A DNA stretch of 64,000 bases, from the NCBI GenBank assembly GCA_963838925.1, contig CAWISW010000001.1:160001-224000 (forward strand), written 5' to 3'. Each line of letters opens with the position of its first letter. Positions within the stretch are counted from its first letter, which is position 1. This DNA is from an uncultured Nitrososphaerota archaeon (lineage in GTDB: Archaea; Thermoproteota; Nitrososphaeria; Nitrososphaerales; Gagatemarchaeaceae). Below the pieces are notes generated by a model. The model was given only the letters and a program-made list of their open reading frames with translations. It made no database searches and was not told where the DNA came from. This document shows positions 45,340 to 53,374 of the stretch, one piece after another. The translations under genes and the position numbers were made by a program.

Positions 45340-45915
45340 TTGGTGCTTCACACAGGGAAGAAGGCGATAAGGGCGCTGGGCGTCGCCGAGAGCTTCCGCC
45401 CTTCGGCGAGCAAGTCCACCCTCGCTGGAGTGGTGATGCGGACGGACCTCGTGGTGGACGGGTTCGCCTTCGGCGCCGTGACCGTGGGTGGGAACGACGC
45501 GACGGCCGCCGTCCTGAGGCTCTACCGGCGGCTGAAGCGCGACGACGTCAACCTGATCATCCTGTCGGGCTGCATAATCAGCCGCTACAACATCATCGAC
45601 GTGGACGAGCTGGCGCGCCGCTCTGGGCTCCCAGTGATATGCCTCACGTACAACGAGTCGAGGGGCATAGAGGGCGCGATCAGGGCTCACTTCGACGACC
45701 CGGAGGACAGGATCGAGAGATACAGGAGGCTAGGGAAGCGTTCCACCATCACGCTGCGCACGGGCTACAGGGCTTACGTCAGAAGCGCGCACATAACGGA
45801 GGAGGACGCGAAGACCGTGCTCGACTCCTTCACGCTCCAGGGAGGCTTCCCCGAGCCGGTGAGGCTCGCGAAGCTCCTCGCCAGGTCGGCGTCGAGCCTG
45901 AAGCTGAAGGCCTAG
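45340..45915 (+). CDS. DUF99 family (endonuclease V-like) protein
   Basis: GVAESF, GGNDAT, YNIID and PEPVRLA. Confidence 0.88.
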   Translation: MVLHTGKKAIRALGVAESFRPSASKSTLAGVVMRTDLVVDGFAFGAVTVGGNDATAAVLRLYRRLKRDDVNLIILSGCIISRYNIIDVDELARRSGLPVICLTYNESRGIEGAIRAHFDDPEDRIERYRRLGKRSTITLRTGYRAYVRSAHITEEDAKTVLDSFTLQGGFPEPVRLAKLLARSASSLKLKA

Positions 45916-46775
45916 CCTGCCTTTACTATTATCGTGCCCTTCATCCAGCCGTGAAGGCTGCAGATGTAGTGGTACGTCCCGGGGACTGTCAGTGTCTGAG
46001 TGAAGGTCCCGTTCGGCGCGATGATGTCGGAGTTGGAGGTCCCCGCCCCGCTCGGCACCGTCGTGAATGTCACGGTGTGCGCTGCGACGTCGTCGTTCGT
46101 CCAGACTATCGTGTTGTTGACTCCCACCACGACCGTCGCGTTGTCCGGCCCGAACCCGGGCGACGTCTGGTCGGCCGATGCCCCCTTCAGGATCGATACC
46201 GCGAACCCGTGCGCCGGGAAGGCGCTGCTCTGGGTCGCGGCATTGCTGGTAGACGAGGAGGACGCAGAGGACGAGCTCCCGCTGCTACCGGACCCCGCAA
46301 GCACGATTATCTTGCCCACCATGGTCGTCGGGTGGACGACGCAGTAGTAGGCGTACGTGCCAGGAGAGGTCAGGGTGAATGGTCCCTTGGTGGTCCCGAA
46401 GCCTATCACTCCCGTGTCGAACGGGCAAGGCAGTCCGGACTGCGCGCACGTGTCGGCGGTCAAAGAGTGAAAGACGCCCCCGCTCTGGGAGTCGTTGTTG
46501 AGCACCTGGAACGTGTTGTTCACGCCTATCACGAGCGTGACCACGTCCGGGGAGTAGGCCGTCGTCGTCAGAGTCGCGGCCCCGGGGTTGATGGCGATCG
46601 TGATGCAGCTTGGAGGCGCGCAGCCCGACGCTCCAGATGAGGTCGACGAAGTGCTCGTGCTGCACGATGACGAGGTGCAGTAGACGAACTGGTAGTATCC
46701 CACGGAGGTCACAGCAATCACTATTATCACCGCTATTGCCAAGGCGACGCCGACCGAACCCTTCGGCTGACTCAT
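45912..46775 (-). CDS. Membrane-anchored two-domain blue copper (cupredoxin) protein
   Basis: Two type-1 Cu sites: H...CVVHPTTM and H...CSLHGWM. Confidence 0.92.
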   Translation of the reverse strand: MSQPKGSVGVALAIAVIIVIAVTSVGYYQFVYCTSSSCSTSTSSTSSGASGCAPPSCITIAINPGAATLTTTAYSPDVVTLVIGVNNTFQVLNNDSQSGGVFHSLTADTCAQSGLPCPFDTGVIGFGTTKGPFTLTSPGTYAYYCVVHPTTMVGKIIVLAGSGSSGSSSSASSSSTSNAATQSSAFPAHGFAVSILKGASADQTSPGFGPDNATVVVGVNNTIVWTNDDVAAHTVTFTTVPSGAGTSNSDIIAPNGTFTQTLTVPGTYHYICSLHGWMKGTIIVKAG

Positions 46776-46979
46776 TGCTTGATGCAGGTGTCGCGAATCG
46801 AGGGGTAATAAAATTTTAACGGGCGCTGTAAGCTTAAAAACGGCATTCGAGTGTGGTTCAACCCGGCAGCAATAGTATTGTTAGCTATGACGACGAATGA
46901 CGTAGCTGGCGTGAAAGGGCCCGGTTCCACTATCGGGGCGAGCGGGTGGGCACCAACGTTCTCGAGGGTTGCGATCTAG

Positions 46980-47789
46980 ATGTCAGAGAAGCTCACTAAC
47001 AGCACCGCGCCGCCCGCGCCCCCTGCCCCCCCGCCGCGTCCAGCAGCCTCGCCCCCGAAGCAGAGCAGGAGGAGGTTCCTCACCCTGTTCGCAGTCGTCG
47101 GGGGACTATTGACGCTCGTCCCATGGGTGCCGAACCTCGGCAACTACCTCTCGGCGTCAGTCAGCGGCGCGTCTTCCCTCTCGAAGAACGCTACCATTGT
47201 TCTAGACAACAACACCTCGGAGAACAAGAACGCGGCAGGGAAGACGGTCAACGTCAACGACCTCACGACCTTCCCCCCGAACAGCCATTGGGTCATGACC
47301 TACCCGTCCTCGGGAGACCCCAACCTCGACGGGCAGAACCCCAACACGTTCGTAAAGTTCGAGCTGATCAGGCTGCCCTCGGAGCTGGGCGGCGCCAACA
47401 AGGACGCGAGCGCCTTCGTCGCGTTCAGCAAGGTGTGCGTCCACCTCTGGTGCAGCCCCAACTACAACCCCACGCAGTGCTCGGACGCCAACGAGAACGG
47501 CTACTCCTCCGCTGCAGGATGCGCCACCCACGAGCTCTACGAGTGCCCGTGCCACGGGAGCGGGTACTCTGTCGGAGCGGATGGCAAGGCGGTAGGGGTC
47601 GCCACGCTCGGCCCTGCCTCGGTGCAGCCAGCCCCGACCAACGCGATCCCGCTCCTCACGCTAGCGACGGACTCCTCGGGCAACCTCCAGGTCGTCCCCC
47701 CGGTCTGGGACGTGGACCACAACGGAGTCATCGGATACGGGAGGGTCACAGGGAACGGCGCGTTCGTCGGAGGGTACAACCCTCAGTAG
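46980..47789 (+). CDS. Rieske [2Fe-2S] subunit of a bc-type complex
   Basis: Tat motif SRRRFL; CVHLWC and CPCHGS. Confidence 0.95.
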   Translation: MSEKLTNSTAPPAPPAPPPRPAASPPKQSRRRFLTLFAVVGGLLTLVPWVPNLGNYLSASVSGASSLSKNATIVLDNNTSENKNAAGKTVNVNDLTTFPPNSHWVMTYPSSGDPNLDGQNPNTFVKFELIRLPSELGGANKDASAFVAFSKVCVHLWCSPNYNPTQCSDANENGYSSAAGCATHELYECPCHGSGYSVGADGKAVGVATLGPASVQPAPTNAIPLLTLATDSSGNLQVVPPVWDVDHNGVIGYGRVTGNGAFVGGYNPQ

Positions 47790-47801
47790 AATTGGTGATT
47801 T

Positions 47802-49430
47802 GTGAGCTTGTCATCCTCTGACTCTGGCGACGGCAGCAAGCCCGAAGAGCAGAAGAAGCCCTCGATGCCGCCGCCTCCGCCCAGACCGGGCTCGGTTGGC
47901 ACCGCCGGCTCCCCTGCCGCCCCAGGCTCGACGGGGACGAGCGCCGTGCCGCCCGCTCCCAGGCCTGGCGTGCCGATGGCCCCGACTCCGCCGCGCCCGG
48001 CCGGAGCCGCCCCCATGGCGCCGATGGCTCCCAGAGCCCCAAGCGCGCCCTCTGCCGCAGCAAAGCCTCCAGCGCCCCCTCCTAACATGATAGTCAAGCT
48101 CTGGAACTTCATCGTCGGCAGGTTCGAGAGGACTGTCTTCTTCGGACTGAAGTTCACCTTCCCCAAGAAGTTCGTGAGCCCGCTGGGCTTCCTCGGCGTA
48201 CTCACGGGGATGGTCTTCCTGCTGCTGGGCATAACCGGCGGCCTCCTCATGATCTACTATGAGCCCACCCTTCCGGGGTGCGGCAACTTCTCGTGCGCGT
48301 TCACCAGCGTCGCGAACATCACCAACACGGTCCCCTACGGCTGGTTCCTGAGGGACATCCACTACACGGCGTCGAACGCGATGGTCCTCCTGGCGGCCCT
48401 ACACCTCTACTATCAGTACTTCAGCGGGAGGTTCAAGATCAAGAACGAGGTCATCTGGGTGACGGGGATGATCTTCGGCCTCATCACAGTCCTCGAGGCC
48501 TTCACAGGGTACGACATCATCTTCAACCAGAGGGCGGGCCTCGCTATAGAGATAGGTGCTTCCCTGGCCAATTCGTCCCCCTCGATCGGGCCTGTCACTG
48601 GATCGGCGATCCGACTCGCGACCTTCGGGTCCGGGTTCAGCGACTTCATCCTGCGCCTCTTCGCGGCCCACGTCTTCATCCTCCCCATGTTCATGCTCCT
48701 CCTCACATTCTTCCACTTCCCGCGCTACCTCGTCTTCGACCTCCCGGTCGTCGCGTCGGTGATGGGCGGCATATTCGTCATCGGCTCGCTGTTCCCTGTC
48801 CAGCTCGGCACCGCCTACAGCCCGGGCAACGGGCAGCTCACCATCCCAGAGTGGTACCTGACCAGCCTCTACGCCCTCCTCCGCACGGAACTTGACAAGT
48901 TCACGATGGCGGGACTGATCCCCGTCCTCATGCTGCTTATGTTCGCCGTGGTGCCCTTCGTGGACACCTCGAAGAAGATGTCGTGGAAGGAGAGGCCCTT
49001 CTTCGCCGCGCTAGGCATCACCAGCATCGGGCAGGTGCTCGTGACCACCTCCTGGGGCGCGTACGTCAACCCGGACACCTCGCTGAGCACGCTCGCGCGG
49101 CTCTACGTCAATCCGACGGAATACTTCGGCTCCATGCTCATCCTGACGGCCGTCTGCTTCGGCCTCACCTACTCCGTGATCAACTTCCTCAACGCCAAGG
49201 AGAAGGTCAGGAAGGCGCTGAACCCGACCTCGCTCTCCTTCCTCTCCAGGGAGTGGCTCACCGCGATACTCTTCCTGCTCATCGCCGTCCAGGTGATCAT
49301 GAACATCTTCGCCGTCCAAGCGGTCGGGGCTGGGTTCAACAGCATCGCCCTCTTCGAGCTGGGAGTGATCTTCATCACCTTCTCGGTGATAGTCCACCTC
49401 TACAGATACAGCCAGCAGCTGCCGTTTTGA
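47802..49430 (+). CDS. Cytochrome b subunit of a bc-type complex
   Basis: Four heme-ligating His; PEWY motif; Pro-rich N-terminus. Confidence 0.95.
   Translation: MSLSSSDSGDGSKPEEQKKPSMPPPPPRPGSVGTAGSPAAPGSTGTSAVPPAPRPGVPMAPTPPRPAGAAPMAPMAPRAPSAPSAAAKPPAPPPNMIVKLWNFIVGRFERTVFFGLKFTFPKKFVSPLGFLGVLTGMVFLLLGITGGLLMIYYEPTLPGCGNFSCAFTSVANITNTVPYGWFLRDIHYTASNAMVLLAALHLYYQYFSGRFKIKNEVIWVTGMIFGLITVLEAFTGYDIIFNQRAGLAIEIGASLANSSPSIGPVTGSAIRLATFGSGFSDFILRLFAAHVFILPMFMLLLTFFHFPRYLVFDLPVVASVMGGIFVIGSLFPVQLGTAYSPGNGQLTIPEWYLTSLYALLRTELDKFTMAGLIPVLMLLMFAVVPFVDTSKKMSWKERPFFAALGITSIGQVLVTTSWGAYVNPDTSLSTLARLYVNPTEYFGSMLILTAVCFGLTYSVINFLNAKEKVRKALNPTSLSFLSREWLTAILFLLIAVQVIMNIFAVQAVGAGFNSIALFELGVIFITFSVIVHLYRYSQQLPF
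49415..49426 (+). repeat. 12-bp direct repeat GCAGCTGCCGTT, copy 1
   Basis: Identical to 50703-50714; brackets the tnpB element. Confidence 0.85.
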
Positions 49431-50702
49431 ACTGCCCGCTAGCGCAGCAGGCTTCCTGCTTCAATGAGCAAATATGCTTGTCCTGTGGTGCCTGACAAGT
49501 AGGGATCCGCCCTCAGCACGGGCTCGTTCCAAACCCTTAGCGAGAATATTCCTCGCCGCGTTCACGTCTCTGTCGATTGCAAGACCGCAGTGTTCGCAAT
49601 TGTGCACTCGTTGACTGAGTGTCTTGTGAGCCATTTCCCCGCAACTAGAACATTTCTGCGAAGTGCCGCTTGGGTCGACGAGAATGACCCGTCCTCCACG
49701 CCTTTCCGCCTTTGAAGCGGTCAAGTCGCGGAGCATTCCCCAACCGGACTCCATTATTGCTCTAGCGAGATTAGGATTCCTAACCATTCGGCGAATTTTC
49801 AGATTCTCGAAAACAATCGTGTGGTTGTTTCTCGTCAGTTCATCCGACAGTTTCTCAAGGAAGTCTTTCCTTTGCCGTCGCAAGGTTCTCCATGCCTTGG
49901 AGAGAAGAGTCCTCGTCTTCTCTCGGTTTCTCGAACCGCGATTCTTGCGAGATAAGCGACGTTGCAAGTGAAGGATCCTGTTTGCCGAAGTCTGAAGACA
50001 AGAAGGTTGTTGAACCGAGGTTCCGTTGCTCAGAGTAGCTAGGTTCGAGATTCCGAGGTCGACGCCTATTGCTCCCTCGCCGCACGGCCTTCTGATTGGG
50101 GATTCTTTCACGAGAACCGCAATAAACCACTGGTCGATGTCCCGAATGATGGTTGCCCTCTTGAGGCTGCCCCCGATAGCGCAACACGGTCTGACTTTGA
50201 TTCTGCCGATCTTGCTCAGAATGACATGATTGTGCTCCAGCTTGAAACCCATCTGTGGGTAGGTGAAAGAGTTGTAACGCGCTTTCCTCTTGAATTTGGG
50301 GTGTTTGATTAGGCCACAATGGAATGACATGAACACTCTCCAGCCTCCAAACGACATCCTGCAAGACCTGAGCGTATACTTGTTTGAGGAACTTGTTGCT
50401 CTCCTTACGGATTGGAAGAGATCTCTTTTGCTCGAAGTAACTAGAGTGGGTGGTTATTCTGTCTGAAAGTAAGTCGTTGTAGAGGCGGCGACATGTTTCA
50501 ACGGTCTCCTCAAGGGTTCTCTGTTGCACTTCGTTCGGGTATAGCCGAAACATGAAGGTTAGCGTAGCGACTCATTCTCCGCCGAATCTAGTTGGGGAGC
50601 ATAGGATGCAAACGAATGCGGGTCGACGGTTCTTGTTGTCTTTAGTAGAGGAGTCGTGTTGTTAGAACTCGAATTAGGATATAAGCGCCCATCCGCGCCA
50701 CG
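49427..50702 (-). mobile_element. tnpA-less IS605-family (IS1341-like) element
   Basis: Right end ...GAAGC-hairpin-AGTTCAA on the minus strand; lower GC; bounded by 12-bp repeats. Confidence 0.8.
49461..50553 (-). pseudogene. tnpB: Frameshifted TnpB
   Basis: FRLYP N-terminus in one frame; GVDLG, VFENL, CSSC..CEHC and DRDVN in another; shift near 50335. Confidence 0.88.
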
Positions 50703-50714
50703 GCAGCTGCCGTT
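50703..50714 (+). repeat. 12-bp direct repeat GCAGCTGCCGTT, copy 2
   Basis: Followed by CTAG; overlaps the 14-bp palindrome ACGGCAGCTGCCGT (50700-50713). Confidence 0.85.
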
Positions 50715-51525
50715 CTAGGGCGACTCTAGGTCGGCGCAGAGCTCAAAGTACCTCGGCCCTATGGCCCTCACGCGCCTTACCGCCCCGACGGAGAGCCCCT
50801 GGGCGATCGTGCCGAGTTCCTTCCTGAGGTTGCTCTCGGACTCGGCCTCGTCCCTCCCGGTCATGTGCCTATAGTAGTGGACGACGCCCTTCGGGGCCAG
50901 CATCGAGAGGGCCGCCGGGAGGAAGAGGTTCGATTGCGACGGGTGGGGCATGAGGATTCTGTCGAATGGCCCCTCGCCCTCTAGCTCCTCGGGGAGGAGC
51001 ATGGCGTCGCCCTCTATCATCTCGATCCTGTCCTCGACCTTGTTCAGCTTGTTGTTCTCAAGGTGGTACCTGAACGCGGCGTCGTTGAGCTCGCAGCTCC
51101 AGACCCTCGTCTTCTTCGCTATGAGTATGGAGTAGGGCCCCACGCCAGCGAACATGTTCAGGACCTTCTCGCCCGCCGCGACCTTCCCGGCTATCCGCAG
51201 CCTCTCAGTCGAGAGGCGGGGGGAGAAGTAGCAGGTCTCGACGTCGAGCTTCAGCCTGAGCCCGTTCTCCTTGTGGAGAGTGGTGGTGCGCTCCTCCCCG
51301 CCCAGGTGGCGGAGCTTGCGAAGGCGGAAGTCGCCCTCGATGCCGCCCTCCTGGCCGTAGACGCACTTCACGCTCTTCATCTCCGAGAGGATCGCCTCCG
51401 CGAGCGCCCCCTCGCTCCCCCCGGCGCCGGGGCGGAGCTTGACTATCGCGATGTCCCCTATCACGTCGATGCCGCTCTCGAAGGACGAGAGCTCGCCCCA
51501 CTTTGAGAGCTTCGAGCAAGCTCAC
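50715..51525 (-). CDS. Trm5/Tyw2 (Met-10-like) tRNA methyltransferase; apparent frameshift near the N-terminus
   Basis: IGDIAIV, HKENG, YFSPRLSTER and NMFAGVGP; long ORF is 50715-51464. Confidence 0.88.
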
Positions 51526-51547: not shown

Positions 51548-53374
51548 TCATGCCTCCTGCTCCTCTTCCTCCCCTTCCTGTGGCTGGCCGGGCCTCGCCG
51601 CGTAGTAGTACTGGCCCTTCTCCTTCTGCTCCCTGTCGCGCTTGCTCTCAGGCTTGTTCACCCTGGGCCTGCCGCTCTTCACGTCCCTGCGGTACGTCAG
51701 CCCTATCTCCCCGAGGAACGTGTTCATCCCCTCCTCCTTCCCGAGAGGAGCGGTCGCCGACCCGCTCCGACCCGGCTCCCCCGTGAAGACCATCATCCTG
51801 TCCGAGATGAGGTCTAGAAGCTGGATGTCGTGGTCGATTATCAGCGCGCTCTTCCCCCTCGCCTTCACCAGCCTTCCCATCGCCTTGGCGATCACGAACC
51901 TGTCCTCGACGTCCACGAAGGCGGACGGCTCGTCCAGTGCGTAGAGGTCGGCCTGGGCGGCGAACGTCGAGACTATGGCCAGCTTCTGGAGCTCCCCGCC
52001 GCTGAGGTCCGCCACGTTCCTGGGGAGGAGCTTCTCGATCTTCAGGGGGCCCGCGAGATACGCCTGGAGGTTGGCGTCGTCGAACCCCTTCCCAACCTTC
52101 TCGCCGATGAACTCGAGGACCGTCCCTGGGTAGTCCGCCTTCAGGTACTGGGGCTTCAGCGCGATCTTCGCGCCCACGCTCACCTCCCCGGAGTCCGGCT
52201 TCTCCTCTCCAGCGAGCATCCGGAGGAACGTCGTCTTTCCGAGCGCGTTCGCCCCGATGGCCCCGAAGATGGTCCCCGCAGTCATCTGGCCGGCGCTCAC
52301 CTCGAGCGAGAATCCGGGGAACGCCTTCTTCAGCGAGCCGTAGCTAGCGATGACCTCCTCGGATTGCTGGGTCTCGACGCTTGTCGTGACGTCGAAGGTG
52401 ACGCTCTTGTCCCTGAAGCGCGTGTTCTCAAGCGGGAGGAATCCGTCGAGGAGCGCGTTGATGCCGCTCCGGGAAGGGTAGAGCGACGAGACGATGCCGT
52501 AGACGCCCGGCTCCCCGTAGACTATCTGGACGTAGTCGGACGCATAGTCGAGGAACGTGATGTCGTGCTCGACGAGGAGGACGTACCTGCCCTTCTCGGC
52601 GATCGACCGGATGAGCTTGGAGACAGCCAGCCTCTGGTAGACGTCGTTGTAAGACGAGGGCTCGTCAAAGAGGTACATGTCTGCCTCCTTGAGCGAGGCG
52701 ACCGCCACCGCCACCCTCTGGAGCTCCCCGCCGCTCAGCTCGCCCACGTTCTTCCCGAGCGCCTCCCCAAGGCCGAGCGTCTCGACGACGCTCTCCATCT
52801 CGCCCGTCTCGTTCATCTTGGAGAGGAGGGACGAGACGTCCTTCTTCCACACCTCTGGGAGCTTGTAGACGGCCTGGGGCTTGAGCGAGATCTTCACCTC
52901 GCCGCTCTCGACCCTCTCGAAGTGCTCCTTGAGCTCCTTCCCGCTGAGGTAGTCGAGTATCAGCCTCCACGAGGCCGTGTGCTCGTAGTCGCCCAGGTTG
53001 GGGATGAGCTGGCCCGACAGGATCTGGAGGGCGGTGGACTTGCCAGTACCGTTCCTCCCCACGAGCCCCACCACGTGCCCCTTCCTCGGGGTCGGGAGGC
53101 GATAGAGGCGGAATGTGTTCACGCCGTACTGGTGTATCTTGTCCTCTTGCAGCTCCTCGCTCAGGTTCAGGATGGTTATCGCCTCGAACGGGCATACCTT
53201 CACGCATATCCCGCAGCCTATGCAGAGCTGCTCCGAGATGACCGCCAGCTTCTCCTCGCCGAGGACTATGCACTCGTCTCCGTTGATATTGACGGGGCAG
53301 TCCTTGATGCACTCTAGCCCGCACTTGTCAGAGTGACAAAGATTCTCGTCGAGACCGGCTACCCTGTGAACCAT
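51548..53374 (-). CDS. Ribosome recycling ATPase ABCE1/Rli1
   Basis: N-terminal 2x[4Fe-4S] Cys motifs; two ABC domains; TYRRD..SGRPRVNK. Confidence 0.97.
   Translation of the reverse strand: MVHRVAGLDENLCHSDKCGLECIKDCPVNINGDECIVLGEEKLAVISEQLCIGCGICVKVCPFEAITILNLSEELQEDKIHQYGVNTFRLYRLPTPRKGHVVGLVGRNGTGKSTALQILSGQLIPNLGDYEHTASWRLILDYLSGKELKEHFERVESGEVKISLKPQAVYKLPEVWKKDVSSLLSKMNETGEMESVVETLGLGEALGKNVGELSGGELQRVAVAVASLKEADMYLFDEPSSYNDVYQRLAVSKLIRSIAEKGRYVLLVEHDITFLDYASDYVQIVYGEPGVYGIVSSLYPSRSGINALLDGFLPLENTRFRDKSVTFDVTTSVETQQSEEVIASYGSLKKAFPGFSLEVSAGQMTAGTIFGAIGANALGKTTFLRMLAGEEKPDSGEVSVGAKIALKPQYLKADYPGTVLEFIGEKVGKGFDDANLQAYLAGPLKIEKLLPRNVADLSGGELQKLAIVSTFAAQADLYALDEPSAFVDVEDRFVIAKAMGRLVKARGKSALIIDHDIQLLDLISDRMMVFTGEPGRSGSATAPLGKEEGMNTFLGEIGLTYRRDVKSGRPRVNKPESKRDREQKEKGQYYYAARPGQPQEGEEEEQEA

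Follow-up and report, generated by a model that had tools for sequence, protein, structure and literature searches.

A solo tnpB transposon of the IS1341 type (insertion sequence family IS200/IS605), lying on the minus strand at 49427..50714 of a 64-kb stretch of contig CAWISW010000001.1 from an uncultured Nitrososphaerota archaeon (the window), begins with a 12-nucleotide (nt) copy of the host DNA that adjoins its other end. Two accounts describe insertion in this family as free of target duplication (PMC13565253; PMC3119063). This repeat is a real and rare departure from that rule, and a sister element at the same site in a second species has its own version of it. In TnpB biology the right flank supplies the guide of the omega RNA, and the target consists of the target-adjacent motif (TAM) plus that right flank, so that the copied piece would be the TAM-proximal "seed" of the element's own target. 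By this analogy, the repeat would duplicate the seed right next to the TAM, ahead of the rest of the left end (LE) of the element.

The 12-mer, GCAGCTGCCGTT, occurs at 49415-49426 and 50703-50714 and nowhere else on either strand of the window, where its expected count is 0.01; two copies were reached in none of 100 dinucleotide shuffles. The 1276 nt that separate the copies (49427-50702, the element minus its LE-side copy) have a GC content of about 0.46-0.55, against 0.59-0.66 outside the element. The left copy (49415..49426, plus strand) is the last 12 nt of host DNA before the right end (RE), whose terminus, ...GGGCAGTTCAA, ends at 49427. It closes the cytochrome b gene (47802..49430, plus strand; an open reading frame (ORF) matching Pfam families Cytochrome_B, Cytochrom_B_N_2, and Cytochrom_B_C) as CAG CTG CCG TTT TGA, the last codon and the TGA (49425-49430, with the stop at 49428-49430) being completed by the terminal bases of the element. 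In minus-strand orientation this copy makes up the first 12 nt flanking RE (AACGGCAGCTGCTGGC in the fetched locus L022), and is expected, by analogy with other TnpB systems, to be the omega-RNA guide and target. The right copy (50703..50714, plus strand) forms the first 12 nt of LE, between the TAM and the remaining LE (LE start AACGGCAGCTGCCGTG in L022), and reads CAG CTG CCG TTC TAG. LE starts at 50714, directly after the TAM on the minus strand, CTAG (50715..50718); this tetranucleotide is shared with the stop codon (50715-50717, minus strand) of a trm5/TYW2-type methyltransferase gene (50715..51464, minus strand; an ORF matching Pfam TRM5-TYW2_MTfase) that is convergent with the cytochrome b gene, and in empty alleles it contains the cytochrome b stop as well. 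The two copies, their shared QLPF* readings, and the shared CTAG had all been described in the original prediction, and sequence and ORFs confirm them. Equally sound was its claim of a 14-bp palindrome at 50700..50713, ACGGCAGCTGCCGT, which is perfect and consists of 11 nt from the repeat and 3 element bases.

A locus search across 40 relatives found both flanks together in six genomes of the genus. Five relatives (G017, G020, G006, G014, and G009) carry an empty allele, ...CAGCTNCCNTTCTAG, with one copy of the repeat; the cytochrome b gene reads ...CAR CAR CTN (C/G)CN TTC TAG or TAA, and the end of trm5 follows at once, so that the stops of the two genes overlap. A soil-metagenome run contig provides a sixth empty allele, whose variant is CTCCCC. 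The remaining genus genomes, in which a single flank matched or a different neighbour stood (G018, G008), were left unscored at the junction. Just such a junction, with a single copy joining the two genes, had been predicted, together with the view that a duplication is unexpected under canonical TnpA transposition; both hold, the repeat being real and the empty alleles single-copy. The C-terminus of cytochrome b, LYRYSQQLPF, is identical in the window and in the empty allele L007.

In one other relative, G012, a related element sits at the same site, with GGGCTGTTCAA followed by AAGGCAAGCTGCTGG across its right junction and CCCTAG followed by AAGGCAAGCTAGCC across its left junction. Its flush repeat is 10 nt long, and its tnpB is intact (368 aa). 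Occupancy is patchy, with two occupied and five empty alleles among the seven species that have this gene order. A tree of 30 TnpB genes of the genus joins the elements of G000 (the window genome) and G012 as sisters (bootstrap 96%), each at the end of a long branch (0.42 and 0.34). A host tree built from five linked proteins places G000 with the empty G017 at 78% and G012 elsewhere, and occupancy thus seems, on weak support, to be non-monophyletic. Transfer of the element between G000 and G012 together with its flanks was considered and rejected, since the 300 nt on each side are 84% and 78% alike, not above the 88% and 79% found between G000 and the empty G017.

The repeats of the two occupied alleles differ at three positions (AACGGCAGCTGC in G000 versus AAGGCAAGCT in G012; cytochrome b codons CTG CCG versus CTT GCC), and within each species both copies carry the same variant. 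The same positions vary freely between species in the empty alleles. Independent drift of two old ancestral copies is excluded, as the same three changes are found in both copies. The copy must therefore have been made independently in each species, or rewritten from the host, or kept matched to the guide by selection.

How unusual such a repeat is was judged from other elements of the family. When the start of LE is compared with the RE flank, flush identity extends over 12 nt in G000, 10 nt in G012, and 5 nt in a further mapped element, L041, while six other mapped elements give 2, 2, 2, 2, 1, and 0. A wider test scored YTAR plus a prefix of the element's own flank in 43 elements with a recognisable RE, some of them fetched twice; after 12 and 10 the next value was 5 (L041, also fetched as L109; L030; L120). 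Among 1806 permuted control pairs, 16 reached at least 5 and none exceeded 6. A boundary-free survey compared 370 nt upstream with 270 nt downstream of tnpB for the longest common string. Among 12 close family members only G000 (12) and G012 (10) stood out, the other 10 lying within the control, and in 54 further loci the distribution equalled the control except for palindromes shared by the two ends (L140, 15; L110, 13; L134 and L152, 11); of 67 loci fetched, 13 had been excluded because their flanks were short or their genes partial. IS605-type elements are known to have such palindromes in common at their two ends (PMC3119063). The original prediction was to be refuted if duplications were absent from all other solo tnpB elements, and this is nearly the case: the sister element at the same site is the only one with a duplication, of 10 nt, while seven other mapped elements have 0-5 nt, and the 54 loci have nothing above control beyond the end palindromes.

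The 5 nt of L041 have some features of their own. Its LE start, CCGAAG, is closer to the host variant of four of six empty alleles than to the element's own flank, CCGAAA. Within this LE (about 1120-1155 of the oriented locus), the first 7 nt, CCGAAGC, recur in inverted form 19 nt further along, as GCTTCGG, and the resulting terminal hairpin has the copy of the target start as its 5' arm, as in the window (ACGGC..GCCGT). We also considered whether the 12-mer is a motif borne by the element in its LE. The best match in 13 other LEs is 10 of 12 positions (candidates include AACGGAAGCTGG in L026, AAGGCAAGC in L038, and AACGAAGGCTGG in L024), which 242 of 2000 shuffles reach, and the motif was rejected. 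Strings resembling AACGG.AGC stand in the LEs of several relatives, but by this shuffle test they arise often by chance. For the 16-mer and the G012 versions of the query, 1252-1491 of 2000 shuffled queries did as well.

The element otherwise follows the insertion rule of its family. The RE of 12 close relatives is conserved as GGG(T/C)AGTTCA(C/A). Three further sites were mapped by means of empty alleles in other species (L028/L040/L048, L024/L026, and L041/L027), with L028, L026, and L041 as the occupied side loci, L066, L079, L083, and L159 as the empty alleles, and 49427-49431 and 50715-50718 as the corresponding window positions. The four sites give a single boundary rule, in which the TAM YTAR is followed by LE, and the RE, ending in TTCA(A/C), is followed by the flank. 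LE stands directly after YTAR (CTAG, CTAA, or TTAG) at all four, the TAM being CTAG in the window and CTAA/CTAG, TTAG, and CTAG at the other three. Every one of these sites lies between convergent genes whose stop codons overlap by 4 nt (CTAG, CTAA, or TTAA), and at every one the TCA of the RE terminus gives the opposite-strand gene an in-frame TGA, both host proteins keeping their length. The original prediction had linked the rebuilt stop codon and the unchanged cytochrome b to the repeat or to a special route of insertion. That link fails: in the window, canonical insertion after CTAG suffices to yield CCG TT/T TGA (junction at the slash), with no repeat required, and the same rebuild occurs at three sites without a long repeat. 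The rebuild is therefore independent of the repeat and of any special route, and is a property of the family.

Left tips and empty sites in the family vary. At orthologous sites the left tips are unrelated in sequence (L028/L048; L041/L027), and the LE of L026 (G018) has about 128 nt more than that of L024 (G022) at the same site, lying between the TAM and the shared LE sequence (query 706-833). At the "empty" L041 site of G020 (L158), 24 extra nt, GAAAACGAACCGAGGCTTAG, lie between CTAG and the usual CCGAAGACGG and end in a second TAM-like TTAG; this extra piece may be an element footprint or a minimal remnant. The L028 site in G002 (L068) has about 100 nt of GC-rich DNA between the convergent genes, where other species have none.

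The tnpB gene (49461..50553, minus strand) is interrupted by one frameshift near 50330-50345, which divides it into ORFs 49855-50553 and 49461-50357. Run contigs, possibly from the same sample as the window assembly, have the same letters at the frameshift, a region they cover gap-free, and match the left junction (49347-49497) with 0 differences; the contigs listed leave 50639-50722 unbridged. The tnpB pieces match Pfam families HTH_OrfB_IS605 (PF12323, 2.1e-8), OrfB_IS605 (PF01385, 5.8e-23), and Cas12f1-like_TNB (PF07282, 6.3e-24). Inspection by eye of the translation of 49461-50357 finds GVDLG, VFENL, DRDVNAARN, and CSSCG..CEHCG, which lie in columns that are invariant in the family alignment and which we take to be the RuvC D/E/D catalytic residues and a CxxC..CxxC motif. 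A conserved RE region of 160 nt (49427..49586, minus strand), overlapping the 3' end of tnpB, has 22 predicted pairs when 12 family members are aligned; in 9 of these pairs both sides have changed and pairing is preserved. A putative conserved structure with such compensatory pairs is as expected of an omega RNA; an Rfam scan of 49300-50800 found no family, its single match, to sX5, being at chance level (E 0.78).

No inverted repeat was found at the ends of the element in a repeat search of the window. Inside the element only tnpB has a Pfam match, in a scan that covered just the two tnpB pieces; a trans-acting recombinase was not searched for. The element shows none of three hallmarks of DDE-type insertion sequences, namely terminal inverted repeats, a DDE transposase, and a constant duplication length. 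As single-stranded DNA the palindrome would form a 5-bp stem, and hairpins can be drawn at LE (ACGGC/GCCGT, GCGC/GCGC) and at RE, but three folded pieces (z -0.21 for the 53-nt piece with the palindrome, -1.10, and -0.49) fold no better than shuffles. The element is present as a single copy in its 1.84-Mb genome. The Y1 TnpA profile PF01797 has no match in G000 (87% complete) or G012 and matches in 1 of 23 genomes of the genus (G002); in a control, the same search matched in 6 of 14 known genomes. Relatives of the window tnpB are found in 13 of the 22 other genus genomes, often at orthologous sites and with deep divergence.

The explanation we prefer, which we regard as plausible rather than probable, is that the repeat is a by-product of the repair of an RNA-guided break (homing) in which the TAM-side stub of the target was kept. 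TnpB would cut the empty site far from the TAM, and the TAM-side end would keep the first 10-20 nt of the target. This tail would be joined to LE, or paired with it, instead of being trimmed to the TAM, while the other end would copy the element with an occupied allele as template; both sides of the element would then have the first bases of the target. An existing copy would make the TAM-side end homologous to the donor up to its tip, and each later homing event would rewrite the copy from the recipient's own sequence, so that both copies would come to be host-specific in each of the two species. The copy would thus be made, and later refreshed, by guided-break repair and not by TnpA pasting, and we count the finding of no Y1 TnpA in G000 or G012 in favour of this sequence of events. 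Repair of this kind would account for the flush start at the TAM, the variable length (12, 10, and 5), the host-specific variants, and the hypervariable left tips. The variable length, together with the L041 LE being nearer the commoner host variant, fits repair junctions better than a fixed staggered cut, of the kind raised in the original prediction, with which the two lengths of 12 and 10 in the occupied alleles disagree.

The left junction now offers the TAM and a 12-nt (or 10-nt) guide match, followed by mismatches. The omega-RNA guide had been predicted to match the element's other flank, and by this reasoning it would do so directly after the TAM; such a site may be bound but poorly cut, by analogy with other TnpBs. 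ISDge10 TnpB with a 10-nt guide engages DNA without breaks, and indels drop from 14 nt downward (PMC13507860). For Dra2, a heteroduplex of about 12-16 bp is given as needed for efficient cleavage, with binding that survives mismatches beyond position ~8 (bioRxiv 10.64898/2026.01.09.698545). A broader proposal, possible but in our view doubtful, is that the LE copy is a natural footprint, and possibly a working part, of archaeal TnpB homing, with the stub kept, the element repeatedly rehomed, and its own nuclease binding LE uncut for self-regulation or self-marking.

Several observations weigh against repair of a guided break as the source of the copy. With tnpB broken in G000, the copy there is not being refreshed at present. 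ISDra2 TnpB cuts at positions about 15-21 nt from the TAM, and the repeat, ending at 10-12 nt, is shorter than this; the G000 repeat may extend to 16 nt if a 2-nt insertion is allowed (CG, then TGGC), but only when read post hoc. The site-persistent lineages L028/L040/L048 and L024/L026, each present at its site in several species, have no long repeat, so that repair of this kind could be no more than an occasional event. Support is weak (78%, from five linked genes) for the host tree in which the occupied species are not sisters. Other occupied alleles were not found: a degenerate RE/cytochrome b junction pattern, with up to 2 mismatches allowed, matched only G000 and G012 among 97 family genomes; the pattern had 0 matches in genome_contigs and 0 in metagenome_contigs, and the G012 TnpB protein found one distant locus (41% identity) in metagenome_contigs and no new occupied allele. 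Finally, homing itself was not observed. The runs yielded a single empty allele, which has the different variant CTCCCC and therefore belongs to another strain or species; no contig in three runs (short, low-depth contigs) joins across the element with this strain's own sequence.

Among the alternatives, selection on a partial self-target would explain the co-variation without rewriting. Here the copy arose once, by whatever route, selection keeps it matched to the guide, and TnpB with its omega RNA binds its own LE uncut, changes in LE compensating for synonymous changes in cytochrome b. We consider this unlikely. It gains from the co-variation of the copies at three positions between two deeply diverged sister elements, and from the position and extent of the copy, which directly abuts the TAM and stops at 10-12 nt, a length at which, according to the sources cited above, other TnpBs bind but cut poorly. 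A TATA-like TTATAT or TTAAATA stands 14-20 nt past the copy, and binding might repress a tnpB promoter immediately downstream or prevent trm5 transcription from reading through; that promoter was assigned by eye, and a role in binding or expression is putative. Two lineages provide one comparison only, none of seven other family members with mapped ends has a site of this kind, and the copy in G000 is still perfect although its tnpB is a pseudogene. A true target-site duplication, along the lines of the original prediction, appears less probable again. Each species would need an insertion of its own, either at a staggered break or through a trans-acting recombinase or transposase, with fill-in duplicating 10-12 bp. 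Both occupied alleles do have flush direct repeats of host sequence where the empty alleles have one copy, independent events would account for the host-specific variants, and TnpA was found in neither genome. The length, however, is inconstant at 12 versus 10, the element's ends lack inverted repeats, no ORF within it encodes another transposase or a recombinase, and the RE is exactly the TnpA-type terminus of the family at exactly the family TAM, as at three sites free of duplication. Two independent insertions at one site, with no long-range specificity to direct them, are also unlikely.

Aberrant cleavage by TnpA would predict exactly the layout seen, with its flush ends, and yet we think it very unlikely. 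The element would be excised at a pseudo-site 10-12 nt past RE, the circle would be cut at the true TTCAA, which moves the flank bases to the 5' tip of LE, and re-entry would follow at the same site on another copy of the chromosome. Left tips are indeed hypervariable, both in this family and in haloarchaeal IS605-type elements (PMC3119063). The supposed pseudo-sites (ending in ..GCTGC and ..AAGCT), however, resemble neither TTCAA nor YTAR, the donor would lose 12 nt of cytochrome b, the genome has thousands of TAMs, which makes a return to this one improbable, and neither genome yielded the TnpA that the scheme needs. Least credible, to the point of being hardly tenable, is chance, or an old inert duplication with no continuing process. 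The host sequence does contain a palindrome, GCAGCTGC, and the piece with the LE hairpin folds no better than shuffles, both of which would suit a chance origin. Such an origin is opposed by the window expectation and shuffles given above, by control flush matches that stay at 6 or below, and by the second species, with its own 10-nt flush repeat and the same three differences in both copies.

Compared with the IS1341 group, the window element is typical in its TnpB domains, its lack of terminal inverted repeats, its strand-specific insertion 3' of a 4-nt motif, and its structured RE. Its relatives are highly diverged and low in copy number, as described for those of haloarchaea (PMC3119063). 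It is unlike the group in repeating 12 nt of its right flank at its left tip, where the flush matches of relatives are 0-5 nt, and in that no Y1 TnpA was found in the G000 genome. Flush direct host repeats, with one copy in the empty allele, are what a DDE-type insertion sequence would leave, but the element lacks the inverted repeats and DDE transposase of that type, and its repeat length differs between species.

Homing of IS200/IS605 elements guided by TnpB and omega RNA is reportedly the subject of [quoted passage not shown] (bioRxiv 10.1101/2023.03.14.532601). The window resembles such a system in that the guide would be the right flank and the target, TAM plus right flank, would be the empty site: six of six empty alleles have YTAR followed by the sequence of the cytochrome b end. 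It departs from it at the left junction. In the canonical model an occupied allele is immune because LE interrupts the target right after the TAM, whereas here the first 10-12 target bases remain. Binding of this kind by short guides (ISDge10; the intermediate R-loop of Dra2 and Ymu1) likewise involves a TAM-adjacent match of 10-12 nt followed by mismatches, bound and uncut; those published cases are engineered guides or exapted immobile systems, and here the site would be the natural end of a mobile element, with binding putative. Binding without cleavage has further parallels in nuclease-dead TnpB-like repressors (TldR), in the autorepression of Cas9 by tracr-L, and in CreA/CreT. Homing endonuclease genes pass through a cycle of invasion, decay, precise loss, and reinvasion. 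Patchy occupancy, with one decayed copy (G000), one intact copy (G012), and a functional host gene, is reminiscent of them, although recognition here would be RNA-guided and the element is an intergenic transposon relative, not an intron or intein.

The genes around the element provide context. A cupredoxin gene (minus strand) is followed by the Rieske and cytochrome b genes (plus strand) over 45912-49430, and an ABCE1-like gene lies downstream of trm5 at 51548-53374. This gene order is kept in six relatives. The N-terminus of cytochrome b has a long low-complexity stretch rich in Pro and Ala. In G009 (L057) the cytochrome b match falls into two overlapping pieces (residues 24-425 and 413-542), and the gene there may be frameshifted or contain an indel.

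Cas12 descends from TnpB elements, which are used as small genome editors, while their natural behaviour is known from few bacterial models. Insertion at overlapping convergent stop codons, with an antisense TGA supplied by the element, leaves both host genes intact and is close to harmless. Persistence of these elements in a genus where TnpA was found in 1 of 23 genomes bears on how tnpB-only elements move. A seed copy that tracks its host points to re-insertion by break repair or to a selected self-target, neither of which is predicted by canonical single-strand transposition. If the copy is indeed a footprint of homing, this would account for the hypervariable left tips of IS605-type elements, and flush repeats between LE and the right flank could reveal past homing events from genomes.

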